This document shows, one piece after another, positions 21,487 to 51,430 of a stretch of 64,000 bases of DNA (position 1 is its first letter; every line of letters starts with the position of its first letter). Location of the stretch: positions 22,948-86,947 of the forward strand of contig CAJOMC010000001.1 in NCBI GenBank assembly GCA_905235635.1, read 5' to 3'. The notes under the pieces were generated by a model. That model did not search any database. It was not told the DNA's origin and worked only from the letters and a program-made list of their open reading frames with translations. Made by a program: the position numbers and the translations under genes. Source of the stretch: an uncultured Bacilli bacterium. Its GTDB lineage: Bacteria; Bacillota_I; Bacilli_A; Izemoplasmatales; UBA1188.

Positions 21487-23439
21487 ATGGCCAACAATTC
21501 ATATGATGCTTCGAGTATTCAAATACTTGAAGGATTAGAACCCGTTAGAAAAAGACCTGGTATGTATATAGGATCCACTGATTCTCGTGGATTACACCAA
21601 CTTGTTTGGGAAATTTTGGATAATGCTATTGATGAAGCATTATCTGGTTTTTGCAAAAACATTTTAATTACAATCAAACAAGATAATTCAGTAAAAATAG
21701 AAGATGATGGTCGTGGTCTTCCTGTTGGTAAACACCAAAATGGTGATGATGTACTAAATGTTATTTTTACTGTACTTCATGCTGGCGGTAAGTTTACAAA
21801 TGAAGGTGTCTATAAAGTATCTGGTGGTCTCCATGGTGTTGGAGCATCCGTTGTGAATGCGCTTTCTGATTGGCTTGAGATTACAAGTTATAAAGACGGA
21901 AAACAATATCATCAAAGATTCGAAAATGGTGGTTCTAGGTTTTCCAAACAAATAGAATATGTTGGACCAACAAGAAAACATGGCTCCGAAGTATGGTTTA
22001 AACCAGATCATACCATCTTTTCAACTACTCTATTTAACTATCAAACAATACTTGAAAGAGTTAGGTCTAGTGCCTATCTTATTAAAGACCTTCATATAAA
22101 ACTGGTAGATGAAAGATCGGGACAAAAGGATGAATTCTGTTTTGAAGATGGTATTAAAGCTTACTGCGAACATGAAACAGAGGGCAAAAATGTTTTAATT
22201 GAAAAACCAATCTATTTCTTCCAACAGGTTGAAGATACTCAAGTAGAGTTTGCGCTTAACTTTGCGAAAGATGCTTATAACGAATCAATTTCTTCATTTG
22301 TTAATAACGTTAGAACTAGGGATGGTGGTACCCATGAAGCTGGTTTTAAATCAGGTTTAACAAAGATTTTTAATGAGTTTGCTTATAAATCAATAGGTCA
22401 AAACAATCCTATATTAAAAGAGAAAGATGCACCTTTTGAGGGCGTAGATATAAGAGAAGGTTTATTTGCGATTCTCTCTATTCGTATGAAAGAACCTGAA
22501 TTTGAAGGACAAACAAAAGAAAGACTTGGTACTGCATATATCAAAACAATCGTTGAACAAGTAACTACTGATAAACTGCGTACTTTCTTTACAGAGAACC
22601 CTCTTATCGTCTACAACCTTTTAAAAAAGGCTCAATTCGCACGTGATGTGAGAGATAAGGCAAGAAAAGCAAGGGATGAAGCAAGAAACATCAAAACTAA
22701 AACTAAACAAGAACAATCTTTATCCGGAAAGCTTGCCCAAGCAGCAACCAAAAATAATAAAATAAATGAATTATTCTTAGTTGAGGGTGATTCTGCGGGT
22801 GGTAGTGCGAAACAAGGTCGTGATAGACGCTTCCAAGCGATTTTGCCTTTAAGAGGTAAGGTATTAAATACCGAAAAAGCATCTGCGAATGAAGTATTAT
22901 CAAACGAAGAACTACGTACAATGATTGCAACTATTGGTGCTGGATATGGACCATCTTTTGATGTTAAAAAGTCTAATTATAATAAGGTCATAATTATGAC
23001 CGATGCGGATGTCGATGGTTCACACATTCAAATCCTTTTACTTACATTCTTCTTTAGATATATGACTGATTTAATTAAAGAAGGAAAAGTATATATCGCT
23101 CTTCCTCCTCTATATAAAATCCAACAAGTAGGTGTTCAAAAACCTAAATTAATCTATGCTTATAGCGACCATGAAAGAGATGAAATAACCAAAGGATTTA
23201 AAAGATACACTATTCAAAGATATAAAGGTTTAGGTGAAATGAATGCGAGTCAACTCTGGGAAACCACCATGGACCCTAAAACCCGTACCTTAATTCAAGT
23301 TAAAATTGATGACTTTTTTGATGCGGATAATGCAGTATCCACATTAATGGGTGAAGATACCGAGCCTCGTAAAGCTTGGATAGAAAATAACGTTTCATTC
23401 GCTGAAATAGACGATTATAAGATTCAAGGTGGTGAATAA
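21487..23439 (+). CDS. parE: DNA topoisomerase IV subunit B
   Basis: [59 protein letters not shown]; paired with parC next to yneF as in Bacilli. Confidence 0.92.
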
Positions 23440-35243: not shown

Positions 35244-36499
35244 GTTTAAATGATGCGATAGCCTGGATCGAATCCAAGAAAAGGTCTAGAAAAAGAGAAA
35301 ATTTAGATAATTATAGGGAAGCACTTAAAGAACTCGGTAATCCACACGAGTCCTTTAAGTGTATTCATATTGGTGGAACAAACGGAAAAGGCTCAACTTC
35401 GGTATATCTTTCAAGTATTATGAAAGAAAAATATGAAAAGGTAGGACTTTATATTTCACCATATGTATTATCTTTTAATGAGAGGATCCAACTAAATAAT
35501 ACACCTATCAGTAAAAGTGATTTACTGGTATATATAAACTTTATCAAATCATTTAGTGATAAGTTCGAAGAAACACATGATACTTTATCATTTTTTGATT
35601 TAATAACTCTTATTGCATTCCTTTACTTTAAAGATATGAAAGTTGATATCGCAATAATAGAGGTGGGACTAGGCGGAAGGCTTGATTCTACTAACGTTAT
35701 TAACCCACTAACTTCAATTATTACTTATATTTCAAGAGACCATTCTAAAGAACTAGGCAATACTAACGCTAAAAGAGCGATGGAAAAGCTTGGTATAGTA
35801 AAAGAAGGAATACCTCTTTTAACTTTTGAACATAAGCCAAGAATTTTAAGCATATTTAGTGAATTTTGTCGGAAAAAGAATTCAGATTTCATTCCTATAA
35901 AAAACCTTTCTAAGCCAAAAATAATAGAAAACGGAATGGAGTTTAAGTATAGAGGAAAATATTGGAAAATCCCTCTTCTTGGCGATTATCAAGTATTAAA
36001 TGCTTCTTTAGTAATTGAAACTATTAATCTATTAAACACTAGGTATGATCTTGGAATAACGGATGAAATGATAGAGAATGGTCTTTTAAAGACTAAGATG
36101 CCTTGTAGGTTTGAAGTATTTAATAAAGATGGCGTAATTATTGATGGTGCCCATAATCCAAATGCGATAAGAAATCTTTTTAGGTTCTTAAAAAAATATA
36201 CTAAAAAAGATATAATAGTCATATATGGCGCAATGAAGGATAAAGATTATGATTTAATTTTAAGAATTATATCTAGATTCACAAGTAATATTATATTCAC
36301 AAGAGTCGATTATCCACGCGCTGAAAGTGAAAACCATCTCTATCAAATTTGTAACATAGAGAACAAATGGGCATTTAGCGATATAAATAAAGCAATTAAG
36401 TTTGCGAAAAAAATCCGAAAGGATAGATTAATTATAGTGACTGGGTCACTTTATCTTGCGAGTGATGCAAGGAAGGTATTAGTAGGTGATGTATGTTAG
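35234..36499 (+). CDS. folC: Folylpolyglutamate synthase/dihydrofolate synthase
   Basis: GGTNGKGS, EVGLGGRLDSTN, DGAHNP, TGSLYL; canonical position after valS. Confidence 0.95.
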   Translation: MFISLNDAIAWIESKKRSRKRENLDNYREALKELGNPHESFKCIHIGGTNGKGSTSVYLSSIMKEKYEKVGLYISPYVLSFNERIQLNNTPISKSDLLVYINFIKSFSDKFEETHDTLSFFDLITLIAFLYFKDMKVDIAIIEVGLGGRLDSTNVINPLTSIITYISRDHSKELGNTNAKRAMEKLGIVKEGIPLLTFEHKPRILSIFSEFCRKKNSDFIPIKNLSKPKIIENGMEFKYRGKYWKIPLLGDYQVLNASLVIETINLLNTRYDLGITDEMIENGLLKTKMPCRFEVFNKDGVIIDGAHNPNAIRNLFRFLKKYTKKDIIVIYGAMKDKDYDLILRIISRFTSNIIFTRVDYPRAESENHLYQICNIENKWAFSDINKAIKFAKKIRKDRLIIVTGSLYLASDARKVLVGDVC

Positions 36500-39213
36500 A
36501 GATTAGAGGATTAACTAAAGATTATTTAGCTGGAGATAATAAAGTACATGCGCTAAAGGGAATAAGTGTTTCATTAAGAGACTCTGAATTTGTATCTATT
36601 TTAGGTCCGTCTGGATGTGGTAAAACCACAACATTAAATATTATTGGTGGTCTTGATAGATATACTAAAGGGGATTTAGTAATTAATGGTGTATCAACTA
36701 AAGAATATGATGATTCAGACTGGGATAGATATCGTAATAGAAAAGTAGGATTTGTTTTTCAATCATATAATCTAATTCCCCATCAAACGATATTATCTAA
36801 TGTTGTTCTCGCATTAACAATAGGTGGTATCGACAAAAAAGAAAGAGTCAAGCTTGCAAAAGAAGCACTTTTTAAAGTTGGTCTTGAAAATGAGATTTAT
36901 AAATACCCAAGACAACTATCTGGTGGACAGATGCAAAGAGTCGCAATCGCCAGGGCAATTGTGAATAAACCTGAAATACTTCTCGCAGATGAGCCTACAG
37001 GAGCCCTTGACTCAAATACATCAATTCAAGTATTAGATTTATTAAAAGAACTATCTTTAGACCATTTGGTTGTCATGGTTACTCATAATGCAGAACTCGC
37101 GAGAAGATATTCTACAAGAATAATAACTCTTAAAGATGGACTAATTACGGGTGATTCAAATCCATTTAACCCAACATTTAAAGAAAGAGAAATTTTAATA
37201 AAAAAACAAAGAGATAAAGAAAAAGCATATTTTGATGAAACAGGTAAGAAAGAGAAAGTTGGTATGCCTTTTAAAACATCCTTAAAACTTTCTTTATCTA
37301 ACCTTAGGAGTAAAATAGGTAGAACTATTCTCACGTGTTTCGCTGGATCAATTGGTATTATCGGTATTGCGCTTGTTATATCTTTATCAAATGGATTCCA
37401 AAAATATGTTGATAAGGTAGAGGAATCTGCACTTCAATCATATCCAGTAGCTGTAACATCATCTAATGTTGATATGTCTGCAATTATGACTTCTTTACTT
37501 AATTCAATGGTGAAGAGTGACAAAAAGGATAGTGAAAGAGAAGAAGTAATACCATCTTATGTAATGGTTGATTTACTTGGATCTCTCGCAAAAACAAGTC
37601 AATCAAATGATTTGTCGAAACTTAAATCATATATTGAAACGAACTATGATAAAATTGAACCTTATGTTACTCATATTAAATACTCCTATTCTGTGAATCT
37701 GACTGCATATGATGCATTAAGAATGGACAGCGACGGAAACTTCCTCTTAAAACAGCTTGAACCATTCACTCTACCTCAGTCTACTCCATCACTTCTTGGT
37801 GGTATCGTTGGTAGAAGCACTATGGAAACATTTATGCGTACCTATGATATATGGGGAGAGATTTATGGTGATAGTGAAAATGCAGTAAGTAAAATTATTC
37901 AAGATCAATATGATTTACTTGAAGGAAGATGGCCTACATCTAAGGATGAATTTATTTATGTCGTTGAAAATGATAAAACCATAAATGACTTCGTAATCTA
38001 TGCGACAGGCCTAACTGATGATGAAGAAGGCAAAGATATTGGAGATGAATATATTATTCAATTATTCCACTATGTAAATGGTGATGTTGATAGTGAGGGA
38101 AATAAATATACAAATCCTGCGCTTGATCCTAAATATAACGAATTATTTAAATGGTCATATGAGAAGATTGTTGACTCTGTATCATTCTATATCGTTCCTG
38201 AGTCATCTTATTTTATAGAAGATGAAGAAAAAATTGAATTAGAAGATGGTTCATTTTTAACCACATTTTCATCTATTAAAGGGAATAATGATAAAATAAA
38301 AGAACTTGTTCAAAATGAATCAAATGGTGTACTTAAGATGAAATGTGTTGGTGTTGTTATGCCTAGTTCATCAAGTGATACTCATTCAATACAAGGTACA
38401 ATAGGTTATACATCACTTCTAACTGATTATATTATTGATACTAATAATAAATCCGCTGTAGTTAGATATCAAAATGAACAAATGGATTATTGTATTAGTG
38501 ACTACACCTTAGGCTATTTAAACTTTAAGGGTAAATCATGGGAGGAAATCCATGATACTCTTAGACAATTAGGCCAACCACAGACAGTACTTGATAGATT
38601 TAGTGCAAAACAAATGCTTTCAAGCTATGGCTATGTCGATAGAAATAATCCATCTACAATATCCTTCTATCCTAAATCATTTGAGAATAAAGATGATGTC
38701 ATCAAGTTTATTGATGAATATAACTCTACAAGAGAATCAAACGATGATACTGTAGGATATAATGATTATTTAGGCGCTATAATGGGGTCAATCACAAAGA
38801 TTATTAACGCAATAACCTATGTATTAATTGCCTTTGTCTCAATCTCTCTTGTTGTATCATCAATTATGATTGCGATAATTACCTACATTTCTGTTCTAGA
38901 AAGAACAAAAGAAATAGGTATTTTAAGAGCGATGGGTGCATCTAAGAGAGACGTTAGAAACATCTTTAATGCTGAAACATTTATTACTGGCTTAATCGCA
39001 GGTCTTTTAGGTATATTAATATGCATTATATTAAATATTCCTATCTCACTAATAGTAGAAAAACTCGCAAGTATTAAGAATATCGCTACACTTCCTTGGT
39101 ATGTCGGAATTATTCTTGTCGCAATAAGCTTCCTACTTTCAGTAATTAGTGGCTTAATACCATCATCATTCGCATCAAAATGTGATCCTGTTGAAGCACT
39201 AAGAAGTGAATAA
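36493..39213 (+). CDS. MacB/FtsX-type ABC transporter, fused ATPase and permease
   Basis: [27 protein letters not shown]; permease with a large extracellular loop and [17 protein letters not shown]. Confidence 0.93.
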
Positions 39214-39264
39214 TTATTAAAAAAATGCACCTCATAAACGTATATATAATTGAGGTGCTTTTTT

Positions 39265-39933
39265 ATGAATTATGGTCCAAGAGAAAAATTATTAAAAGAA
39301 GGTATAAATTATTTATCAGATCAAGAATTATTAGCGATATTGCTTAATACTGGTACTAAGAATCAAAATGTATTAGAATTGTCAAATATAGTATTAGAAG
39401 AGATATCAAATATATCAATTATTTCAACTCTTGATATGGAAGATTTACTAAAGATAAAAGGAATAGGATACGCAAAAGCATCTAGAATTGTCGCATCATT
39501 TGAACTATATAAAAGAATTATTAATAGATCTATTTCTACAAACCAGATATCATCACCTCAATCTATTTATAATGCTATATCTGGCAATTTCAAGGGATTA
39601 ATAATAGAAAAAGCATATGCATTATTTCTGGATAATAAAAAGAATATACTATCTATAAAGGAAGTTGGTAGGGGCATTTCAAATAAACTATTAATTGATG
39701 AAAATGAATTAATTAGAAAAGCTATTGTATTAAACGCAAGATTTGTTGCTTTAATACATAATCACCCATATGGAAGCCTAAAACCGTCAAATGAAGATTT
39801 AATAACCACAAAAGATATTGAAAATAAATTGGCTCTTTTTAATGTGATTTTATTTGATCATTTAATCTATACAGATGAAGGTTATTATTCAATCAAATAT
39901 GGTATAAAGAAAATTCTCAAAAATTCTTCATAA
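39265..39933 (+). CDS. radC: RadC family JAB-domain protein
   Basis: PREKL...LSD.ELLAILL.TG, GIG.AKA, HNHP.G...PS..D, DH; ATG 39265 follows SD GAGGTG. Confidence 0.92.
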   Translation: MNYGPREKLLKEGINYLSDQELLAILLNTGTKNQNVLELSNIVLEEISNISIISTLDMEDLLKIKGIGYAKASRIVASFELYKRIINRSISTNQISSPQSIYNAISGNFKGLIIEKAYALFLDNKKNILSIKEVGRGISNKLLIDENELIRKAIVLNARFVALIHNHPYGSLKPSNEDLITTKDIENKLALFNVILFDHLIYTDEGYYSIKYGIKKILKNSS

Positions 39934-39940
39934 ATTATAC

Positions 39941-39969
39941 TTGCGAAAATTTTAACTAATTGTTAAAAT
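39941..39969 (+). promoter_or_regulatory. Promoter of the rplU-rpmA operon
   Basis: TTGCGA-17-TAAAAT with extended TG. Confidence 0.75.
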
Positions 39970-39973
39970 AATT

Positions 39974-40050
39974 TACGTGCGTAATGTAACCGCATTGAAA
40001 AGGTCATAAATCTCATTAAATTGAGTACCTTAAAAGCGAGTCTTAACTTA
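39974..40050 (+). ncRNA. Probable L21 ribosomal-protein leader RNA
   Basis: 5' UTR of rplU containing ACCGC...GCGAGT just before the SD, as I recall for Bacillota L21 leaders; not covariance-checked. Confidence 0.55.
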
Positions 40051-40061
40051 GGAGGAATAAA

Positions 40062-40370
40062 ATGTACGCAATTATTGAAACTGGCGGAAAACAATTAAAA
40101 GTTGAAGTTGGCTCTACAATCTACGTTGAAAAATTAGATGTAGAAGAAGGCAAAAAATATACTTTTGATAAAGTTCTCGCTGTTAAAAACGAAAAACTCG
40201 TATTAGGTAGTCCTTATATTGAAGGGGCTAAAGTTGTCGCTAAGGTTGAAAAACAAGGTAGAGGCAAAAAGGTTGTTGTTTTCAAATATGAACCAAAGAA
40301 ACAACATCACAACACTAAAGGCCACAGACAAGCTTATACTAAGCTTACTGTTGAGTCTATCAGTTTATAA
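40062..40370 (+). CDS. rplU: 50S ribosomal protein bL21
   Basis: [18 protein letters not shown]. Confidence 0.98.
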
Positions 40371-40381
40371 GAGGTATAGAT

Positions 40382-40660
40382 ATGTTTAGATTATTAATCG
40401 CTCTTGCATCACATAAAGGTGTTGGTTCTACTAAGAACGGCCGTGATAGTGCTGGTAGAAGACTTGGTGCTAAATTAGGTGATGGACAATACTGTTCAGC
40501 AGGATCTATCATTTATCGTCAAAGAGGAACTAAGGTTCTTCCAGGCAATAATGTTGGAAAAGGTGGAGACGATACACTCTTCGCAAAAGTATCAGGCGTT
40601 GTAAAATACGAGAGAGTTGGAAGAACTAAGAAACAAGTATCGGTTTATCCAGTTCAATAA
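40382..40660 (+). CDS. rpmA: 50S ribosomal protein bL27 with N-terminal extension
   Basis: [34 protein letters not shown]. Confidence 0.98.
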
Positions 40661-40664
40661 AACA

Positions 40665-40685
40665 AACTGCTTCGGCAGTTTTTTT
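40665..40685 (+). terminator. Intrinsic terminator after rpmA
   Basis: aactgc-ttcg-gcagtt followed by a U-run (cUUCGg loop). Confidence 0.9.
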
Positions 40686-40717
40686 ATTTCTATATTGCAT
40701 TAATTATTCCCTTAATC

Positions 40718-40764
40718 TTGAATAACTCATATTTTCAATATATAATTGAACATATGAGGTTATT
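40718..40764 (+). promoter_or_regulatory. Near-consensus promoter inside an SD-sequestering inverted repeat
   Basis: TTGAAT(40718-23)-17-TATAAT(40741-46); IR aataac-tcatat...ttcaa / ttgaa...atatgaggttatt. Confidence 0.6.
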
Positions 40765-40766
40765 AA

Positions 40767-41948
40767 ATGAATATTAAAGATGTAGAGACAAAAAACCGGT
40801 CTATATTCGCAACTATTTCTATTTTTTTAGTCTTTATAGTCTATCTCGGATACAATATTCCGCTCTGTATAGATCTATTTAATTCAAAACCAGCTATTTT
40901 GGCTGAATTTTTAATATCTATACCATTAGTATTCATTTTATCGATTATTTTTCATGAGGCAGGTCATTTAATACTTGGACTGATATCTCACTTTAGATTC
41001 TTGAGTTTTGAGGTATTAGGTCTAAAGATTATTAAAATTAATGGAAAGATAAAACTTAAACGAGGTAATTTCGTCGCATTGGGTCAGTGTCTTTTAGGCC
41101 TTGATAAGGAAAAAAGAGATATAGTAAACACAAAGCTTTACTTATCTGGGGGTATTATCTTAAATGGTGTTTTATCTTCTTTAGGTTTAATCCTATCAAT
41201 AATTTCAGTATTTAAAAGAGACTTTATATCGCCATATGCCTCTACTATTTTATTTTGTAATCTTTATTTTTTAGTAAATAATGCGATTCCTTTAAATATT
41301 GGCGGTATATATAATGATGCCTTAAATATAAGACTATCCAAAAAATATTATGAAGTTGAAAGGACTTTGGTTAATTCTATAGTATTAAACACATATATGG
41401 AAGAAAAAGAATCATTGGCTGACTTTGATGAAGATATTCTTTTAAACGATGGAATAACTACACCAGCTTGGTATGCGTATGATTATCCTTTCATCCAATT
41501 ATCAGTTTATAAAAATATCTTAAATAAAGATTATTACTCTGCATTATCGCTCAATACTCCAAGGTTTACTAATAGATATTATTATCCTAAAGTTTATTTT
41601 AAAAATATAGTATCTCACCAAATGTATTTAAAAATACTTACCGGTGATACATATGAATATCTATTTAAATCTAAAGAAGGCGAATCATTAGTTAAATCAT
41701 CCTACAACAATATGGTTTTATGTGGAGATGTCTTATATCACTATGATAAAGGTGAATTCACTAGTTCCTATGCTTATATGATTCTAAATCAATACGAAGA
41801 AGACACTAAAAATATGTATAATAACATGAAGGTTCAAAAAGAACTAGAACTAGCCGTTATTAACTCTGCGATAGAGTATATTCAAACGAAAGAATTAAAA
41901 AAAATAGAAATTATAGATGTGGAGGAAGAGGATGATCCACAAAAATAA
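40767..41948 (+). CDS. M50-like (site-2) membrane zinc metallopeptidase
   Basis: TM helices; FHEAGH zinc motif; GG..LN; NNAIP...YNDA third-ligand motif; helical C-terminus. Confidence 0.75.
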   Translation: MNIKDVETKNRSIFATISIFLVFIVYLGYNIPLCIDLFNSKPAILAEFLISIPLVFILSIIFHEAGHLILGLISHFRFLSFEVLGLKIIKINGKIKLKRGNFVALGQCLLGLDKEKRDIVNTKLYLSGGIILNGVLSSLGLILSIISVFKRDFISPYASTILFCNLYFLVNNAIPLNIGGIYNDALNIRLSKKYYEVERTLVNSIVLNTYMEEKESLADFDEDILLNDGITTPAWYAYDYPFIQLSVYKNILNKDYYSALSLNTPRFTNRYYYPKVYFKNIVSHQMYLKILTGDTYEYLFKSKEGESLVKSSYNNMVLCGDVLYHYDKGEFTSSYAYMILNQYEEDTKNMYNNMKVQKELELAVINSAIEYIQTKELKKIEIIDVEEEDDPQK

Positions 41949-41999
41949 TTTATATCAAAAAAAGATTATTCATAAATGTATTATTAGAGGAGGCATAAG

Positions 42000-44900
42000 A
42001 TGACAAATATATTTTTAGCCGATTTTGAAGAAATGACAGAAATACTAGAAAAAATCGTTGACATATCGAGTTGGGCTGTCCATTTGCTTATATTCTTGCC
42101 TATTGTTGTCGGGTTACTTGTAGGTATGATGAAAGGCTTTAGAAAGAGTGCAACACGTTTTTTCTTTAGATTATTTATTTTATTAGTATTTATTTTAACC
42201 TTAAATCCTATTGCTAAACTACTATATGGTAGTAGTCTTTTTGGTCAAGCAGGTAAAATTGGTGCCCGTTTAATGAATGGCGCATCATCCACAGACTTTA
42301 CCACTTTAAAGGATGTATTAAGAGGCTACGTAATGTCACTTGTGACCGTCTCTAATGAAGGTATGGCTGAATCTTTAAATAATCCTTATTTCCTATCACT
42401 TATCGACTCAATAGGTGTATTTGCGTTAAAAATTGCTTGGGGATTAATTTTCTTTACTGTAATATTCTTTATTCTCTGGATAATAAAATGTATTGTTTAT
42501 TCATCCGTTATTAAAATTAAGGACAGAAAAGAAAGAAGAGCCAAGAAATCACCTCTTGTTGGTGGAATGTTTGGCATATTAAATGGTCTTATGATGACAA
42601 TCATCTATATGACCTTCCTAGGTGGGCTCTTAAATGTTGTATCTTATACTAAAAAGATAGAAGACATTAAAAAAGAAGCAATAAGTGAAAACGAAAATAA
42701 TAGTGAAAATGCATCTTTAAAAGAAACTATCAATGTATATCTAGATGATGAAGATGAAACTAAAGAAATTACCATAGATGTTTCATCATTTATGGAGACA
42801 TATAATAGCGTAAAAGAAGTGACAGGTACAATTGATACTGTCGCTGAATTCTACAATAAAAATCCTCTAATTAAAGGATTAAATGCATTAAAGATAAAAG
42901 ATAAGACAGGAAGAAAAAGAGGCTTACTTGACGCTAATTTTGATGCCTTAGTCTATATGGAGTATAGAGTAGAATCGGAAAATGAAGATGAAGAAGACCT
43001 CCTTGTCAGAGTAGACGTTCTTGAAGAAGTTGGCGATTTATATGGTGCATTAATGTATCTAATCACAGCTGATGGATTAATCGATAGTGAAGGTAAAATG
43101 CATCTAAATAAACTCACAAGAGAATCAGTTGAAAGCGTATTTAACGCAGTTTCTGAAATAGATCTAATTAGAGTATCACTTGCGGTAGGTTTATCCGTTG
43201 GAGTTGATGCATTTAAAGACAAAATAGAAGGCGTTGAAATATCTAATGATGATATAAATAAGATTTCAAGGACTGATATCTTAGGTGACGTGAAAAACCT
43301 AGGTAAAGTAGTTGGCACCCTTATGGATATGGGTCTAATTGAAACCCTTTCTAAATTTATGAATTCAGAAACCAAAGATCCACTCCTATTCCTTGAAATC
43401 TTTGATTCCACAAAAGAGGGGGCTACTGCCTTAAGAGATGAATTAATTAATGAAATAAAGGGATTTGATTTACTTAAAACGGCTAGCGATGTAATTGCAC
43501 CAATAATAATTGATTACACAACAAAATCAATAGTTGATGAATATAGTTTAGATGATGTTGACTTAAATAGTATTGAAAACGATTCATATATTGACGCAAT
43601 TAAACGTTCGATTGATTTAAATGGAGATATATCTGAGATTGTTAAAATCATTTTTGATGTCGCCAAATTTAATGGTTCAACAAATAATATTTCTTACCTA
43701 AAAGACAACTACAAAAACTTAACAAAACTATTTGAGGAAGAAGAAAATGAGGAAGGAGAATTAATTCCATTCACAAAAGATGATTTATCCGAACTTATGA
43801 ATTCACTTCTTTCAAGGCTTTCATCACTATCATTTATTAATGCAGGAATGGATGTGGGTGTAAAGATATTGGTTGAAACATTAGAAACTAACGAGGAAAA
43901 TAACTATAAAGAATATCTAACTGAAGAAAATATCTTTGCGTCTCACATTAAATGGGACGAAGAGCTTGGTTCAAAGATACCAAACCTTGTTGATACGATA
44001 ATTGATTCTAATGTTATATCAATGGTTTTAAATGTATCTGAGATAAAAGATTCTTTATGGGAAAAGAGTAAAACAAGTGAAACTGATAGTGGTTTAACTG
44101 GTTTACTTGAACCTACTATTAATGCATTATTCTCACTCACTTTATTATCTAATTTAGAAGATACATGCCTAATACCACTTCTTGAATCATACACAAGTAA
44201 GTTATCCGAAACTGTTCAGATAACTTTTAGAGATGATTTTGGCACATCAGGACATAAAGTTAAAGATGAATTACTTTTAGTACTTGGAATAGTAGATGAT
44301 TTAATTTTAGGTGCTAAAGAGGAGGGTGCAGCATCTTTTGAAGATATATTTAATACAGAAAATATATCTATCTTATTAGGCGCTATTGCATCTCTTGACC
44401 CAGCAAAATTAGAAAATAGTACTATATTGAGTGCTACGATGGTTAACTATCTAAGTACTTTTGAAAATGATACTATCAAAGTACCATACATCTATGAAGA
44501 TAGTGCTTGGTGGAGCACTGAAACTGAAAAAGGTGAATTATATAAACTTGTAGAAGCAATAGAAGAAGTCGCAAAAACAGATTCTATTAAGGATATTATT
44601 TCAAGTGGTGCACAAGATAGTTCTTCTATGATGAATTCAATTAAGAACATAGATTTAGATGCAGTGGATAAAATATTTTCATCTGCGACTATTAGATACA
44701 CAATTACTAATCTATTAGACGGATTTGAATCAACAGGATCTGAAAGTGGTTTCAGCATTAAGATTCTAAATGCTGCAAAATCAGATATAAAAGTATCTAA
44801 TTATAAAGTTGATGAGGAAGGAAACCCAATCGATTCAAATCTCGTCCAAATTGATGAAGAAATTAAAGATAAAGATGGAAATACAATCACTAAACTCGCA

Positions 44901-47900
44901 ACTATTAGCGCTTTAAAACCAGTTGAATTTAAGGCAATTATTAAAGCTTTATGGCAAATAGGTGATATAGATGATTTATTATCTTCAAATAATATTGTAG
45001 AAACAATTAAAAGTCTTGGTGGATATGAACTTGATTCAAAAGGCGAAAGAGCATTAGATGATAATAATAATCCATCAGAAAAGAAGAGATACGAAGTACT
45101 TCTTGAATCAAATGTATTATATCCAACACTATCTCATTTCTTAACAGGTGATAAGTTTGATACATTCAATAATACATTTAAATTCCCTGTAACATCAATT
45201 GACTCAAATCTCCTTCAAAGTGATGGAATGTATTACATTAATAGAAAAAAATTAAACAAACTATTCGACTCATTATTCCTAATTCTTGATAAAACTGAGC
45301 TTGATAACTTCGAAAATATTAACGTTGAAAACTTTAAGAATTTAGGCAATCTATCTGATGATGATTTAAATGTACTCACATCTAGTGAGATAGTTGTATC
45401 CACTTTATCTGAACTATTAAATAGTGCATTTGGCGATAGTTCATCTCAATCAATTCTTATTCCATTTAGTGTTACAAGTGATTCACCAAAATATAAATAT
45501 GATGAAGAATTAGGTGAAATTGTCGTAAATGATAAATATAGAGATATCACTAAAACAGAAGTTAAATCATTGCTTAAATCTATTGGAGAATTTGATTTTA
45601 GCAAACTTGGAAGCACCGATGATGCATTTGACTTCTTAAAAGACTTACTCGAAGTTCCAAGTGGTTCAACTAAATCCAAACTTGATACTCTCCTTGAATC
45701 AAGTATTATTCATACAACCTTATCCGACATTGTATTAAATATGGACTTAGGCTCTGTGAATGATTATATCTTCGTTCCAAATAGCGCAATAGAAGATAAT
45801 CAAATAGAACTATATTCATATGGTAAAGGTTCAGAAGAAAAAGAATTAGTATATAGAATTTCAAGTACTCAAATCTATAAGATGATTAAAGGTTTAAACT
45901 ATATAGATATTAATGCGATAGGCGAATCATCTTCTAACCAATTTGATAGTTTTAAAACTTTAACTCAAGATTCAGAAATTCCAGGAAAGACAAAACTTGA
46001 TGTGATATTTGATTCTGAAATATTGAAGTGTACTATCTCTAATTTAATCCTAAATTTAAACCTAGATTCAATTGATTCACTCGTGATACCTTCAAGTACA
46101 CTTACTACTGTAAAAGCGTATGACAAGACATTAAAAACTATCTCAACAAGTGATACATATGTATTAACTAATACAGAAATGACAAAACTAGTTTCAGGTC
46201 TTACATACCTTGATTTAAGCAAGATTGGTGATTCAACAAGTTCATCACAATTTGATTATTTCAAAGAATTAAATGCGCCAGCTGATAGTAGTAACCCAGG
46301 TGTATCAAAATTAGATAAAATATTTGAGTCAGATATCCTTGAATCAACATTCTCTAAATTAGTTCTTAAGATGAACCTAAGTTCTCTTAAACTAGTTGTC
46401 CCTGAAAATGAAATTGAAGATTCAACAAAGAAAGTATTACTAACAATTAACACATATGATACAACAAACAAGGTAATATCAACGGATAATACTTATATAA
46501 TTAATAAATCTGAGATGAAGAAACTTGTGAACTCTCTTACATATCTTGATCTCGATAATATAGGTGCATCTACAGCTAATCAATTTGATTACTTTAAGAC
46601 ACTAAATCAAAAGACAGGAAATGGAAGTGAAACAAAATTAGATATCGTATTTGAATCTGAAATCCTTCAAGCTACTATTTCAGATTTAGTACTAAATATG
46701 AACCTTGATTCTCTTAATTTAATCATTCCAATGAGTGTTTTAAATGATCCTATTAAGGTATGGGAAACTGATCATGTGGGTAGTGAAGCTAATACATATA
46801 TTATTACTCGTGATGAAATAAAGGCTTTAATTAAGGCTCTTACATACCTTGATTTAACAAGTGTAGGTAATGCAGCATCATCATTCTCATCAATCTCTAA
46901 ATTAACAAAAGAAACAACTGATGGTTCAACTTTAAAGATTGATGTGGTAATGTCATCCGAAATACTTGTCGCAACAATATCAGATGTAATATTCAAGATG
47001 GACTTAAGTTCTTTATCACTTATTATTAGAGATAATGCGGTAATCCCTGAAGATGAAACACCACTAGTATATAAGAATACTGGTTCAGGCTTTATAGCTA
47101 ACTCGCCTCTTAATGGCGCAATTATTAGGACAGATGAAATAAAATCAATGCTTAACGCTTTAAATTATCTTGATATTGATAATTTCGGTACAGGAGATAA
47201 TGTATTCAACTCATTAAAAGCCTTAGTTAAACCAGTATCATTAAAAGATAGAAATGTTTTAAAGATAAATAAAATACTAGAATCAGATATTCTATATTCA
47301 ACTATCGCAAACTATATCGCAACACTTCATGTTGATTCAATAGATTTAAAACTTCCAAAAAATGCATTCATACTTGAAAATAGTGAGCTTAAGGAATTCC
47401 CTAACCTAGTAAACACATATAATTATGTAGCTGGTTCACAGGATAAAGCGTGCTTAATAACAAAAGATGAGATTACAGCCTTCGTTATTGCATCAAGTAG
47501 TTTAGACCTTAATAAACTTGAAACTAACGCTCAAGGCTCAATTACGACACTTAAAAATAAGGTTAGAATAGGATCTAACAACCTTATGTCAATTGAATAT
47601 ATTAATAATAGTTTAATTCTTAAAGCATCAATATCTAATTATTTAGTAGATAAGAGTAGTAGTTTTGGTTTTACTGAACTTGTGATACCACATTCAGCAT
47701 ATAATGGAACATCTACTAAGATTATTAAGGAAACTATTAATGATTCAACAAAAGAATTATCATATGCTGAAAAATATTCAATTGTAATTGATTCAGAGGA
47801 GTTAAAAGCACTTGTTGTTGCACTTGCATATATTGACTTCTCAAATATTGGTTCTGATACTCTTGGCGCAATTAGAGGATTAAATGAAACAAAGTTACAA

Positions 47901-49913
47901 TATCTCCTTGAATCAAGTATTATTAAATATACATTATCAAGTCAGATCATTGAAAGTGCAGGCGATAATTCAACAACTAAATTCTACTTACCTAAACAAG
48001 CATTTGAATTAACTAATACTGACGCAATAGCATTCTATGATACTTATAGAAACCTAAATCAAGATACTGGTAAGATAAGTAAGGGTTCTCAAAAGGTATT
48101 AAGTAGTACAGAAATCAAGAATCTAATTGCGACTCTTTCTATCATTGACTTAAATAACGTTCATGAAGACGAGATTTTAGCTTTAACTGATAAAGATTTA
48201 GGTACATTACTAGCTTCATCAATCGTTGTTTCTAATATTTCAGAGAAATTCTATGAAGCATTAAGTTCAAACGCTAATGTAAATTCAGGTATAAATGATT
48301 ATATGAAGAACAACGAAATACTCTATAGTAATACAAATGATTACAACAATTTATCTTCTGAAGCGATAAGTCGTCAAGAAATACTTGATATCTTTAAAGC
48401 ATTGAATATTCTTGGAGTTAAAGAAATGAGTTCATTCTCAATTGACTTAAATACATTATTTATGCTTGATGATGATAACAAAAATACAAATGATGATTAT
48501 GATGATAACATAGATAAAGAATCAAGGGTTGATTTCTTAAGATCCATATTTATAAGAACATTCCTAACAAATGATTCAAGAATTGGTACTTATTTCACAT
48601 CAAAAGCATCTAACGATTCAAACTGTGAAAAGTTTATGACTACCCCAGAAACAAAACCTTATCTTTATATTCATGTATTAACTGATACTCTAGATAATGA
48701 AGTATATGATAATACTGTAGCACATACTTACCCAAGTGATAGTAATCCTAATGAAAGACAAATTAAAATTGATCCAGATAACGGTAGAATTACTTGGAAT
48801 CCAATTACTTATGGTGGATCCAATCCGGTTCATGCTATTATGTATTTCGTTTATATTGATGGTGCAACTCAATATGATGTTGATAATGACAATAATCCTG
48901 ATTATCAATTCGTATCAACAAATGACAACTACTCAACAAGCGCATATGACTACTTGATGTACTTGAAGGACAATAACGCTGTAGGAAAGCATACAATCAA
49001 GGTAGTTGGTTTTGTTGAAGAAGGTTATCCACTAGTTAAAATGACTAAACCATGTATTTATGATGAAACAACTTATGAAGTAACTGGTACTTTAGCTAAT
49101 TTAACAGATGTAGCATATAACTCTGACGAAATGTCTATATCATTTACTAATGTAGTAAATGCTAATGAATATGAATTTATCTTCACTGATGAAAATAGTA
49201 ATACTATCACTCAAGTAGTTAAAGCACCTTATGATAAAAGATCATTTAAGGATATTCTTGAAGAAGGACATACTTATAGTTATAAAATTACCGCTAGATC
49301 AAATAATTCTTCATATAGTAGTTCAACTTACACTTCAACTCAAAATATTGATTATACAGGCGAAATTAAGGACTTTGACGCAGAATATGAAGATGGTGAG
49401 GTTATCTTTACTAATCTAGACTTCGATAAGTCTCTTAGTACATATAACTATAGGGTATTATTAAACGGTAATACCTATAACTTAATAGACCTAGTGGCTA
49501 ATGTAGAAAAAGAAGATGATTACTATGTATTAGATTTAAGTAGCTTAAGTTTAGTACCAGGCGCAAATACTCTAAAAGTTGTCGCAAGAAAGACTAATTA
49601 TAACGATAGCTTAGTAGATCTTGGAAATATTATCTATATTACTGGCATAACTTTAGATACCACATCTATAGAAAAGAATATAGTATTTACTGATGCATCT
49701 GATTTATCTAATAAACTAGTTGTTATTGTATATGATAGTGAAGATAATTTGCTTTCATACAATGAACTATCTATTAATACAGTAGATCATACTTATACTC
49801 TAGATTTATCAACATATAGTGCTAATACATATAGGATTACTTATTATCCTATAAATTCAGGCAATCAATACTATAGCACTATAGAAGAAATAGCTTCATA
49901 TGTTATAGAATAA
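42000..49913 (+). CDS. Giant 2637-aa membrane-anchored surface protein (CvpA-like TM N-terminus, ~105-aa repeats, C-terminal beta-sandwich domains)
   Basis: GLLVGMMKGF and LVGGMFGILNG CvpA-like helices; repeat anchors at 45678, 45993, 46308, 46635, 46935, 47262; Fn3-like segments (ITWNPI...YFVYIDG; YSYKITARS). Confidence 0.85.
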   Translation: MTNIFLADFEEMTEILEKIVDISSWAVHLLIFLPIVVGLLVGMMKGFRKSATRFFFRLFILLVFILTLNPIAKLLYGSSLFGQAGKIGARLMNGASSTDFTTLKDVLRGYVMSLVTVSNEGMAESLNNPYFLSLIDSIGVFALKIAWGLIFFTVIFFILWIIKCIVYSSVIKIKDRKERRAKKSPLVGGMFGILNGLMMTIIYMTFLGGLLNVVSYTKKIEDIKKEAISENENNSENASLKETINVYLDDEDETKEITIDVSSFMETYNSVKEVTGTIDTVAEFYNKNPLIKGLNALKIKDKTGRKRGLLDANFDALVYMEYRVESENEDEEDLLVRVDVLEEVGDLYGALMYLITADGLIDSEGKMHLNKLTRESVESVFNAVSEIDLIRVSLAVGLSVGVDAFKDKIEGVEISNDDINKISRTDILGDVKNLGKVVGTLMDMGLIETLSKFMNSETKDPLLFLEIFDSTKEGATALRDELINEIKGFDLLKTASDVIAPIIIDYTTKSIVDEYSLDDVDLNSIENDSYIDAIKRSIDLNGDISEIVKIIFDVAKFNGSTNNISYLKDNYKNLTKLFEEEENEEGELIPFTKDDLSELMNSLLSRLSSLSFINAGMDVGVKILVETLETNEENNYKEYLTEENIFASHIKWDEELGSKIPNLVDTIIDSNVISMVLNVSEIKDSLWEKSKTSETDSGLTGLLEPTINALFSLTLLSNLEDTCLIPLLESYTSKLSETVQITFRDDFGTSGHKVKDELLLVLGIVDDLILGAKEEGAASFEDIFNTENISILLGAIASLDPAKLENSTILSATMVNYLSTFENDTIKVPYIYEDSAWWSTETEKGELYKLVEAIEEVAKTDSIKDIISSGAQDSSSMMNSIKNIDLDAVDKIFSSATIRYTITNLLDGFESTGSESGFSIKILNAAKSDIKVSNYKVDEEGNPIDSNLVQIDEEIKDKDGNTITKLATISALKPVEFKAIIKALWQIGDIDDLLSSNNIVETIKSLGGYELDSKGERALDDNNNPSEKKRYEVLLESNVLYPTLSHFLTGDKFDTFNNTFKFPVTSIDSNLLQSDGMYYINRKKLNKLFDSLFLILDKTELDNFENINVENFKNLGNLSDDDLNVLTSSEIVVSTLSELLNSAFGDSSSQSILIPFSVTSDSPKYKYDEELGEIVVNDKYRDITKTEVKSLLKSIGEFDFSKLGSTDDAFDFLKDLLEVPSGSTKSKLDTLLESSIIHTTLSDIVLNMDLGSVNDYIFVPNSAIEDNQIELYSYGKGSEEKELVYRISSTQIYKMIKGLNYIDINAIGESSSNQFDSFKTLTQDSEIPGKTKLDVIFDSEILKCTISNLILNLNLDSIDSLVIPSSTLTTVKAYDKTLKTISTSDTYVLTNTEMTKLVSGLTYLDLSKIGDSTSSSQFDYFKELNAPADSSNPGVSKLDKIFESDILESTFSKLVLKMNLSSLKLVVPENEIEDSTKKVLLTINTYDTTNKVISTDNTYIINKSEMKKLVNSLTYLDLDNIGASTANQFDYFKTLNQKTGNGSETKLDIVFESEILQATISDLVLNMNLDSLNLIIPMSVLNDPIKVWETDHVGSEANTYIITRDEIKALIKALTYLDLTSVGNAASSFSSISKLTKETTDGSTLKIDVVMSSEILVATISDVIFKMDLSSLSLIIRDNAVIPEDETPLVYKNTGSGFIANSPLNGAIIRTDEIKSMLNALNYLDIDNFGTGDNVFNSLKALVKPVSLKDRNVLKINKILESDILYSTIANYIATLHVDSIDLKLPKNAFILENSELKEFPNLVNTYNYVAGSQDKACLITKDEITAFVIASSSLDLNKLETNAQGSITTLKNKVRIGSNNLMSIEYINNSLILKASISNYLVDKSSSFGFTELVIPHSAYNGTSTKIIKETINDSTKELSYAEKYSIVIDSEELKALVVALAYIDFSNIGSDTLGAIRGLNETKLQYLLESSIIKYTLSSQIIESAGDNSTTKFYLPKQAFELTNTDAIAFYDTYRNLNQDTGKISKGSQKVLSSTEIKNLIATLSIIDLNNVHEDEILALTDKDLGTLLASSIVVSNISEKFYEALSSNANVNSGINDYMKNNEILYSNTNDYNNLSSEAISRQEILDIFKALNILGVKEMSSFSIDLNTLFMLDDDNKNTNDDYDDNIDKESRVDFLRSIFIRTFLTNDSRIGTYFTSKASNDSNCEKFMTTPETKPYLYIHVLTDTLDNEVYDNTVAHTYPSDSNPNERQIKIDPDNGRITWNPITYGGSNPVHAIMYFVYIDGATQYDVDNDNNPDYQFVSTNDNYSTSAYDYLMYLKDNNAVGKHTIKVVGFVEEGYPLVKMTKPCIYDETTYEVTGTLANLTDVAYNSDEMSISFTNVVNANEYEFIFTDENSNTITQVVKAPYDKRSFKDILEEGHTYSYKITARSNNSSYSSSTYTSTQNIDYTGEIKDFDAEYEDGEVIFTNLDFDKSLSTYNYRVLLNGNTYNLIDLVANVEKEDDYYVLDLSSLSLVPGANTLKVVARKTNYNDSLVDLGNIIYITGITLDTTSIEKNIVFTDASDLSNKLVVIVYDSEDNLLSYNELSINTVDHTYTLDLSTYSANTYRITYYPINSGNQYYSTIEEIASYVIE
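45090..48250 (+). repeat. Array of about 10-11 degenerate ~100-110-aa protein repeats
   Basis: Unit K[L/I]Dx[I/L]xxSxI[L/I]xxT[I/L]S...[V/I]P...Y.I...E[I/M]..L...L.Y[L/I]D; spacing 105, 105, 109, 100, 109 aa between the six clearest anchors. Confidence 0.85.
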
Positions 49914-49916
49914 CTC

Positions 49917-49949
49917 TTATACTAGGCACTTTTAAGGTGCCTAGTATAA
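49917..49949. terminator. 13-bp hairpin just after the giant gene; probable terminator or 3' stabiliser
   Basis: ttatactaggcac-ttttaag-gtgcctagtataa; no U-tract on the + strand. Confidence 0.6.
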
Positions 49950-50137
49950 AACTGATACGCTAAAAAGCGTGTGCATAAAACCCAATAAGTATTTCAAATC
50001 AATCACAACATATTTCCATCACATTTCTCTCAAACAAAAATCAAAGTAATTTGACATAAATTTATGTGATGGAAATGATTGAAACAAAAATAATCACTTA
50101 ATATTAATGTATTATAATATAAATATAGGAGGATACT

Positions 50138-51430
50138 ATGTTTGTTGACGAAACCAAACTAAGAATCGCATCTGGAAAAGGCGGTGATGGTGCCGTTGCT
50201 TTTAGACATGAGAAGTATATGCCGAAAGGAGGACCATCAGGCGGTGATGGTGGAGATGGTGGATCAATCATTTTCCGTGCTACATCACACGAAAACACTC
50301 TTCTTGCCTTAAGATACAAAAGATTAATCAAAGCTGAAAATGGTGAAAACGGAAAACATAAAAATATGACAGGTGCTTGTGGAGCTGATACCTATATAGA
50401 TGTTCCACTTGGAACTTTAATATACGATGATGATACAAATATCCTCCTAGCCGATCTCACAAAAGATAAAGAGGAGCGAATTATCCTTAAGGGTGGAAGA
50501 GGCGGAAGAGGTAATCAAAACTTTGCCAATTCAAGAAATCAAGCCCCCAATTATGCAGAAGCTGGTGAAAGGGGGAAAGAACTGTTTGTTAGACTAGAAT
50601 TAAGAGTTTTAGCGGATGTAGGGTTTGTTGGATACCCATCAGTAGGTAAATCTACCCTAATTAGTGCTATCTCTAAGGCAAGGCCAAAAATAGCCGAATA
50701 CCATTTCACTACTCTTGAACCTAATTTAGGACTTGTAGAAGTAAAAGATGGAAGAAGCTTTGTATGCGCAGACCTTCCAGGCTTAATTGAAGGCGCATCA
50801 AAGGGATTAGGTCTTGGATTTGAATTCTTGCGTCATGTTGAGCGAACAAAAATTATTCTCCATATATTAGACGCAAGTGATGTTGATGGTAAATTACTAG
50901 AAAACTATCTCTCAATAAGAAAAGAACTTGAAGAATATGACTTAAATATTCTAAATAAAAAGGAAATAATCGTCCTAAATAAGATGGATGCAGATAACTT
51001 TAAAGAGAATGAATCTAAATTCGTTCATGACTATGAAGCATTATATGGCGTTAAACCATGCTATTTCGCCATTAGCGCGATGAATCACACTGGCCTTGAT
51101 AATTTACTATATAAGGTCGCAAACGCGCTAGAGGAGGAAAATAATAGGCCTAAAGAAGTTGTTCCAGTAAAGACTGTGAAAGAATATATCTTTAATCCAA
51201 AGGATAGAGGCTTTGAAGTAAAGAAAAACTGGGATAAAATGGAATATGAGGTATTAGGACCTAAGATAGACGAAATTATGAGGACATATAATCCTGATAG
51301 TGAAGACGCTATATTAAGAGTCACACGATCACTTAGAAAAATAGGTGTCGAAGAAGAACTTAAAAAGATTGGCTGTAAGGAAGGAGATCTTGTCTTAATA
51401 GGCAATGTTGAATTCGAATTTAGTGAGTAG
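50138..51430 (+). CDS. obgE: GTPase ObgE/CgtA
   Basis: GKGGDG...GGPSGGDGG, GYPSVGKS, YHFTT, DLPG, NKMD, C-terminal OCT domain. Confidence 0.97.
   Translation: MFVDETKLRIASGKGGDGAVAFRHEKYMPKGGPSGGDGGDGGSIIFRATSHENTLLALRYKRLIKAENGENGKHKNMTGACGADTYIDVPLGTLIYDDDTNILLADLTKDKEERIILKGGRGGRGNQNFANSRNQAPNYAEAGERGKELFVRLELRVLADVGFVGYPSVGKSTLISAISKARPKIAEYHFTTLEPNLGLVEVKDGRSFVCADLPGLIEGASKGLGLGFEFLRHVERTKIILHILDASDVDGKLLENYLSIRKELEEYDLNILNKKEIIVLNKMDADNFKENESKFVHDYEALYGVKPCYFAISAMNHTGLDNLLYKVANALEEENNRPKEVVPVKTVKEYIFNPKDRGFEVKKNWDKMEYEVLGPKIDEIMRTYNPDSEDAILRVTRSLRKIGVEEELKKIGCKEGDLVLIGNVEFEFSE

Follow-up and report, generated by a model that had tools for sequence, protein, structure and literature searches.

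What kind of protein is encoded by a gene of 2,637 codons whose product matches no described family, and on which side of the membrane would such a protein work? The question is raised by a 64,000-nucleotide stretch of DNA (hereafter the window; positions 22,948 to 86,947 of contig CAJOMC010000001.1, assembly GCA_905235635.1) from an uncultured bacterium of the Izemoplasmatales, in which one giant gene runs from 42000 to 49913 on the plus strand. An earlier reading of the letters alone (the sequence-only reading) had proposed a CvpA-anchored repeat protein forming a long stalk with distal beta-sandwich domains, possibly serving in place of a wall or S-layer. We consider it probable, though well short of assured, that the giant protein is a long polyanionic surface fibril or adhesin, anchored in the membrane and carrying a lineage-specific tip that resembles fibronectin type III (FnIII) domains.

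The open reading frame (ORF) is uninterrupted, begins with ATG and comprises 2,637 codons (translation table 11), and an AGGAGG ribosome-binding site lies 8 nt 5' of the start; the protein claimed at this position is thus encoded by an intact gene. The gene is single-copy in its own genome, and the G+C content of the window is ~30%. The 2,422 residues of the giant part contain only 5 cysteines, and the isoelectric point (pI) of the protein is 4.4. Between residues 201 and 1200, aspartate and glutamate together make up 16–24 of every 100 residues and lysine and arginine 5–13, in agreement with the long acidic region described earlier. Pfam and NCBIfam gave no significant match anywhere in the giant protein, and no protease domain was found in these scans. 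Regular expressions for LPXTG (LP.[TSA]G) and for a lipobox found nothing in the protein, and Pfam detected no SLH domain, as the sequence-only reading had stated.

Repeat array, membrane anchor and C-terminal domains

A hidden Markov model (HMM) seeded on six repeat units and iterated on the protein found 11 contiguous copies (aa 1030–2166). A family-wide HMM built on 158 copies added two more, at aa 802–891 (E 5e-6) and aa 889–1009 (E 1.5e-6), giving 13 copies where at least 10 degenerate units of ~105 residues had been proposed; the six anchor motifs named in that proposal all lie exactly where it had put them. The family repeat consensus reads IDTLLASAILHATISKQ...VVP...YISKTELKALIEAL.VLDI.D. 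In pairwise comparison, the 11 clear copies are on average 25% identical (range 12–50%), self-BLASTP of the giant protein gave no off-diagonal matches, and Tandem Repeats Finder detected no ~300-nt period in the DNA. Because the copies share only ~25% identity and leave no tandem signal at the DNA level, the array is, by this measure of divergence, old, as had been concluded from its DNA-level divergence before.

Three units (aa 1332–1645) were modelled with AlphaFold2 from 26 non-overlapping repeat triplets, drawn from eight proteins and aligned in register. The model reached a mean predicted local distance difference test score (pLDDT) of 81.7 and a predicted template modelling score (pTM) of 0.81. 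In the model, each unit is predicted to consist of a short helix, a 12-residue helix carrying the motif S.I..ATIS, a long beta-hairpin and two further helices. The pTM obtained for three units suggests that they pack together in one defined array and not as beads on a string. When the three-repeat model was compared with solved and viral structures by Foldseek, the best match in the PDB had an E value of 1.7 (TM-score ≤0.15 relative to the query) and the best in BFVD an E value of 1.4; the structural comparison that had been advised thus combined a confident model with no fold match in either library. The repeat profile matched no PDB sequence. Pfam, run on the 26 triplets, returned no family matched by more than one triplet and none over threshold, and on four full-length relatives it returned no repeat family. 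No characterised Pfam family was therefore found to account for the repeat, which the sequence-only reading had also failed to recognise. The predicted fold is best described as not seen in the libraries searched (PDB and BFVD), a weaker claim than calling it new. EF-hand_6 was matched in relatives at E 5e-4, under the cut-off; this match is weak and was not taken as a sign of calcium binding.

At the other end of the protein, Kyte-Doolittle hydropathy marks segments at about aa 24–46, 53–75, 131–170 and 186–215, and nothing convincing further on. Eight positions are invariant in 21 homologous anchors (G42, G46, F64, T67, K144, F152, G188 and G192). Owing to these eight positions, the conservation of glycine, lysine and aromatic residues appears to exceed what a passive anchor needs, and suggests a role for the membrane module beyond that of holding the protein in place. 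The CvpA family, PF02674 (gathering score 29.3 bits), is matched by 14 of 23 homologous N-termini, with a best E value of 7.6e-7. Several giants and paralogues in relatives gave sub-threshold matches, and one paralogue reached 31.6 bits with its pieces summed. In hhalign, the profile of the 21 anchors aligned with a profile of stand-alone CvpA proteins (six ~245-aa homologues from the same order) at 70.7% probability and E 3.8e-5 over 62 columns only, spanning transmembrane helices (TM) 3 and 4. The anchor would thus be a CvpA-like distant relative, not a demonstrated member of the family. CvpA proteins of other sizes were also seen among the relatives: a ~400-aa CvpA-family ORF in same-genus genomes, ~245-aa stand-alone copies in family f3 and ~785-aa CvpA fusions in family f2 (loci L104–L117).

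Averaged over the 21 homologues, net charge is −1.4 in the N-terminal tail, +1.8 in loop 1, −4.6 in loop 2, +4.8 in loop 3 and −4.1 over the first ~15 alignment positions past TM4. Under the positive-inside rule, this distribution predicts that the basic loops (aa 47–52 and 171–185) are cytoplasmic, and the protein probably has both termini outside, four TM helices and its giant part outside the membrane. These charge counts supply the topology prediction that had been suggested as a check. In homologues of family f2, loop 3, between TM3 and TM4, is enlarged by a Lys/Arg-rich insert of ~70 residues (L024:5476-6825, L025:8598-9947 on the minus strand and L026:4827-6176); such an insert could hardly be exported and therefore fits a cytoplasmic loop 3. 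With the topology reversed, the repeats would lie inside the cell and the protein would be a cytoplasmic scaffold, a view to which the lack of a cleavable signal peptide and the unusually long 'TM3' region lend something. Against it stand the positive-inside pattern, consistent over all 21 homologues, the hyper-basic insert of the f2 members, the FnIII-like domains at the C-terminus and the lipoprotein-encoding neighbours found in relatives (see below), and we regard such a scaffold as extremely improbable.

Past the anchor, conservation of the juxtamembrane region extends throughout the order as far as about aa 450 (N288, L313-F314-D315, S319, R341, E343 and S387), and the remainder of the region is genus-specific. 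Pfam gave no match for aa 216–801, and the N-terminal profile found nothing meaningful among PDB sequences.

The repeat array is followed by a linker, with invariant alignment positions R10, F13, L14, S16, I17 and R20, and by a C-terminal part whose sequence has a periodicity of four ~90-aa units. A Foldseek search with a model of aa 2167–2637 returned 59 matches in the PDB at E≤1e-3; the 50 listed are without exception tandem beta-sandwich arrays, mostly FnIII. The listed matches are headed by 6xi3, a bacterial large adhesion protein extender, and include fibronectin FnIII 4–7 and 10–14, cytokine- and insulin-receptor ectodomains, LAR, RPTP, complement C3 and an S-layer protein. TM-scores stayed within 0.25 with the query as reference and within 0.40 with the target as reference, low values explained by the undefined inter-domain geometry of the model; the second domain has a pLDDT of 77–90. 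Pfam detected no Fn3 or Big match on the C-terminus, its only return being Ig_RIMBP2 at E 0.17, and aa 2167–2637 matched no PDB sequence. From the ~90-aa units and the tandem beta-sandwich matches, the three to four Fn3/Ig-like domains proposed at first are supported with moderate confidence. The Fn3-like tip is common only to same-genus homologues, and for this reason it appears to be a lineage-specific decoration and not part of the family core.

Altogether, these observations are consistent with the following arrangement. A divergent CvpA-type four-helix domain would sit in the membrane with both ends outside. Basic loop 3 and TM4 would act as an internal signal-anchor, and Sec would export the ~2,400 acidic residues that follow (net charge ~−180). 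Outside the cell, the conserved juxtamembrane region would lead into the 13-repeat array, a presumably rod-like stalk that, in this genus, would end in about four FnIII-like domains. Bacterial surface proteins usually bind through domains of this type. Such a long polyanionic spacer or adhesin may hold the cell to particles or surfaces and coat its bare membrane.

Several points weigh against a surface fibril of this kind. The likeness of the N-terminus to CvpA holds for its four hydrophobic segments and for the 14 matching homologues, but not for the copy in the window: neither the whole giant protein nor its first 240 residues matched PF02674, even at E≤1, and across the window's genome that family gave no match at E≤0.01. 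The topology is drawn from hydropathy and charge counts only, and it is conceivable that the 40-residue 'TM3' forms a hairpin. The C-terminal model, with an input of four homologues only, is of low confidence (pLDDT 58.5, pTM 0.35; mostly beta, with ~30 strands and four short helices). Finally, most members of the family are without the Fn3-like tip, and adhesion through the tip cannot be a function common to the family.

Table 1. Features of the giant gene and its immediate surroundings, in window coordinates
Feature	Residues	Coordinates	Strand	Basis or remark
M50-like gene, multi-TM protein, HEAGH at aa 63	393 aa	40767..41948	+	Weak Peptidase_M50 match
Whole ORF of the giant gene	2,637 aa	42000..49913	+	294 kDa, pI 4.4
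Acidic N-terminal tail	1–23	42000..42068, preceding 42069	+	Predicted outside; net charge −1.4, mean of 21 homologues
CvpA-like four-TM domain	24–215	42069..42644	+	Hydropathy, invariant columns, PF02674 matches among homologues
Acidic juxtamembrane region	216–801	42645..44402	+	Family alignment, composition
13 tandem ~95–110-aa alpha/beta repeats	802–2160	44403..48497	+	HMM iterations
Linker with conserved helix RVDFLRSIFIR	2167–2255	48498..48764	+	Invariant columns, low-confidence model helix
About four Fn3/Ig-like beta-sandwich domains	2256–2352, 2362–2450, 2451–2546, 2547–2637	48765..49910	+	Model, Foldseek
15-bp inverted repeat		49915..49951	.	Immediately 3' of the stop; likely transcript end

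Family distribution and the question of the cell wall

A six-frame search found homologues of the giant gene in 45 of 61 related genomes, leaving 16 without a detectable one; a word-based protein search recovered seven relatives only and understated the family. The search with the repeat HMM that had been recommended was run against 1.84 billion representative proteins and returned 592 at E≤1e-3, 310 of them at E≤1e-30; most of the 150 matches listed are 1,000–3,600 aa long. Fourteen relatives, inspected in detail, always have an N-terminal membrane domain, the juxtamembrane region to about aa 450 and then 2–28 repeats. In family f3, a giant gene (2,246–3,340 aa) is directly followed by that of a shorter paralogue (875–1,417 aa). 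Every source name retrieved reads 'hypothetical protein', also that of QMS84632.1 from Xianfuyuplasma coldseepsis, a cultured organism. Nearly all of the named protein relatives come from Candidatus Izemoplasmatales/Izimaplasma; represented are Ca. Izemoplasma sp. B36, strains zrk2 and WC30 of the Mycoplasmatota, Liberiplasma polymorphum and metagenome-assembled genomes labelled Haloplasma. The literature searched contained no paper on this family and none that links CvpA to these taxa or to proteins of giant size; the homologue goes unmentioned in the Xianfuyuplasma paper and in its supplement.

This distribution bears on the proposal that the protein stands in for a wall. The window's genome (1.37 Mb, 97.9% complete) encodes no penicillin-binding protein (PBP) transpeptidase (PF00905), and therefore fits a wall-less organism. 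Across the class, the repeat profile matches 78 of 300 sampled genomes. A non-random set of 40 of the 300 was tested for PBPs, which were encoded in 12 of the 26 genomes with the repeat and in 8 of the 14 without it. In family f7, each of the six repeat-positive genomes has 3–5 PBP matches, and the f7 proteins are 40–62% identical over their first 600 residues to records labelled Haloplasma contractile or Haloplasmataceae. Four f7 loci were examined (in G143, G107, G079 and G154), and each holds a complete homologue with an anchor match at E 1e-65 to 1e-72 and 7–20 repeats. Within the window's own GTDB family, genome G009 encodes two PBPs together with a homologue in a similar rplU-rpmA-M50-like position. 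In other families, the anchor profile matches ORFs of 1,200–1,760 aa both in PBP-positive genomes (G257, G196) and in PBP-negative ones (G323, G325, G190).

Given these full-architecture homologues in PBP-encoding genomes and the PBP counts in the sample, the family does not track wall loss. The correlation with missing peptidoglycan genes that had been put forward as a check was thus not borne out, since the family also occurs in transpeptidase-encoding relatives. A reconstruction of the Haloplasmatales ancestor infers a wall that was retained but remodelled (PMC10868615). A wall or S-layer substitute, in which many copies of the protein would form a polyanionic coat replacing peptidoglycan and teichoic acids in wall-less cells, draws support from the missing PBP transpeptidase in a nearly complete genome, from the great size and acidity of the protein and from the frequency of the family in wall-less Izemoplasmatales. 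However, full-architecture homologues are present in the PBP-encoding Haloplasmataceae-like genomes (six of six), in G009 and in members of f12 and f26, while 16 of 61 relatives manage without a detectable homologue; lateral self-assembly is unsupported, and the gene has a single copy in its genome. We judge a wall substitute unlikely. A coat-like role is possible in the wall-less members but cannot be the defining function of the family. From the original proposal, then, the membrane-anchored stalk with a tip can be kept, whereas its substitution for a wall or S-layer is weakened by the PBP-positive homologues.

Neighbouring genes in the window and in relatives

The gene order in the window is valS, folC, ABC-FtsX fusion, radC, rplU, rpmA, M50-like gene, giant gene, obg, ruvA, mgsA. 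The 393-residue product of the M50-like gene matches PF02163 (Peptidase_M50) under the cut-off (E 2.3e-4, 21 bits), and NCBIfam gave no match for it. A terminator-like site (40664–40681) lies 3' of rpmA, a promoter-like site (40718–40746) lies 5' of the M50-like gene, and the 51-nt gap between the M50-like and giant genes is without a terminator. On this basis, the two genes likely form a two-gene operon. The hairpin at 49915–49951, beyond the giant gene, was flagged by the terminator scan on the minus strand, and its plus strand is without a trailing T-run. Placement next to rplU-rpmA is conserved in relatives. The pairing of M50-like and giant genes is retained in G002, of the same genus; in G009, of the same GTDB family and another genus, a tetratricopeptide repeat (TPR) protein sits between them.

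In Bacillus subtilis, mreBCD and minCD occupy the interval between radC and obg. Here, this interval (39250–50138) contains only rplU, rpmA, the M50-like gene and the giant gene, and holds no long ORFs for mreBCD or minCD. Between folC and radC, at 36493–39213 (+), lies a 906-aa single-chain fusion of an ATP-binding cassette (ABC) ATPase and an FtsX-type permease (MacB-like), 56% identical to its counterpart in G002.

In relatives, the giant genes have other neighbours. Of 67 named loci (L027–L093), 39 encode a ~290-aa trypsin/HtrA-like protease directly upstream and on the other strand, with 40–62% identity between species; loci without it are mostly truncated or centred on the second paralogue. 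In the one example inspected for it, the HtrA/MarP-like protease of locus L016 (15307–16182, +), there is a lipobox, LTGC. In L016 (1086–2744, −) and L021 (13868–15571, +; L021 belongs to G009), the gene directly downstream of the giant gene or gene pair encodes a ~550-aa 5'-nucleotidase, confirmed by Pfam, and the L016 enzyme bears both a lipobox and a linker rich in Ser and Thr. In the remaining f3 loci examined, the nucleotidase position is taken by a gene of ~470–590 aa, two of these genes being cut by the end of the locus. Such lipoprotein neighbours fit the location outside the membrane that we favour for the giant proteins.

The proteases raise the possibility of an envelope protease system, in which the CvpA-type module would work with the neighbouring protease and the ectodomain would be its substrate for processing, a product shed from the cell or a tether for sensing stress at the surface. 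A protease gene adjoins, here the HEAGH-bearing M50-like gene of the probable operon and elsewhere, in those 39 of 67 loci, the HtrA/MarP-like lipoprotein gene divergent upstream. MarP itself is a CvpA-like anchor fused to such a protease, the first 50 positions of the NCBIfam MarP model (NF033740) match a stand-alone CvpA homologue, and the anchors of the giants contain invariant polar and glycine residues. Adjacency is nevertheless the sole basis for such a system; the M50-like and HtrA-like types are mutually unrelated, and the only trypsin-like match in the window's genome is distant (30% identity) and lies on another contig. We think it quite unlikely that the protein belongs to a system of this kind.

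The nucleotidase genes suggest a different idea, that the giant protein is a scaffold holding extracellular nucleic-acid-degrading enzymes on the surface of DNA-foraging Izemoplasmatales. Members of this order have been reported to degrade extracellular DNA (PMC8289736, PMC8397711), and a nucleotidase gene (L016, L021/G009) or one of similar size lies directly downstream in all f3 loci examined and in G009. In the window, however, the downstream gene is obg and not a nucleotidase, the net charge of ~−180 disfavours direct binding of nucleic acids, and no docking module is recognisable. A nuclease scaffold is accordingly very unlikely. As an observation in its own right, the nucleotidase neighbour in L016 and G009 fits the foraging on extracellular nucleic acids reported for the order.

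A wider idea, which we consider unlikely, is that the CvpA-type module is the working base of an unrecognised class of surface appendages in Haloplasmatales, Izemoplasmatales and allied Bacilli. A rigid rod, made of a protein fold so far absent from the PDB, would be exported and held by this base and perhaps brought into oligomers by it, and a dedicated neighbouring protease (M50-like here, HtrA/MarP-like elsewhere) would process or shed the fibre. If true, this would be the first concrete function for the CvpA domain.

Relation to known systems

The surface architecture of bacteria that are free-living and wall-less is hardly described, and the giant protein offers a conserved candidate of ~300 kDa for an outward-facing component. 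The presence of the family in relatives that bear wall genes argues against a 'pseudo-wall' story. With a confidently predicted fold that is unmatched in libraries of solved and viral structures, the repeat is a good target for structure determination. The family also connects the poorly understood CvpA domain with a concrete cargo and with protease neighbours that are conserved; cultured relatives, among them Xianfuyuplasma coldseepsis and Haloplasma contractile, thereby allow the function of CvpA to be tested.

Giant bacterial surface repeat proteins are known as a kind; what is new here is the combination of an N-terminal CvpA-like four-helix base with an alpha/beta repeat that lies outside the libraries searched. 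The giant protein resembles CvpA (PF02674), for which we know of no established molecular function, in its predicted N-terminal four-helix module and its first loop of the G..KGF type, but is 2,637 aa long where CvpA has ~160–250 aa. It shares with MarP (NF033740) a CvpA-like module that bears a large domain past helix 4. In MarP, that domain is a trypsin-like protease and is extracytoplasmic; the giant protein bears a repeat stalk in its place, and in relatives the protease is encoded separately, next door. LPXTG sortase substrates and SLH proteins differ in that the giant protein has neither LPXTG nor SLH, and its genome is without a PBP transpeptidase.

Adhesins of the 6xi3 type likewise have a long stalk that ends in, or is built of, beta-sandwich domains. 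They use type I secretion and are held in the outer membrane. Their whole stalk is beta-sandwich, whereas in the giant protein this holds for the last ~380 residues only. Ebh of Staphylococcus aureus and Embp of S. epidermidis are very large, acidic, membrane-anchored proteins in which dozens of repeats of ~100 residues presumably make up a rod at the cell surface, and in size, acidity, anchoring and repeat length the giant protein is like them. Pfam found no FIVAR or GA match in the giant protein, the four relatives or the 26 repeat triplets. Ebh and Embp are built of all-helical FIVAR/GA repeats and held by a single C-terminal helix, whereas the protein described here combines a predicted alpha/beta repeat with a putative N-terminal anchor of four helices.

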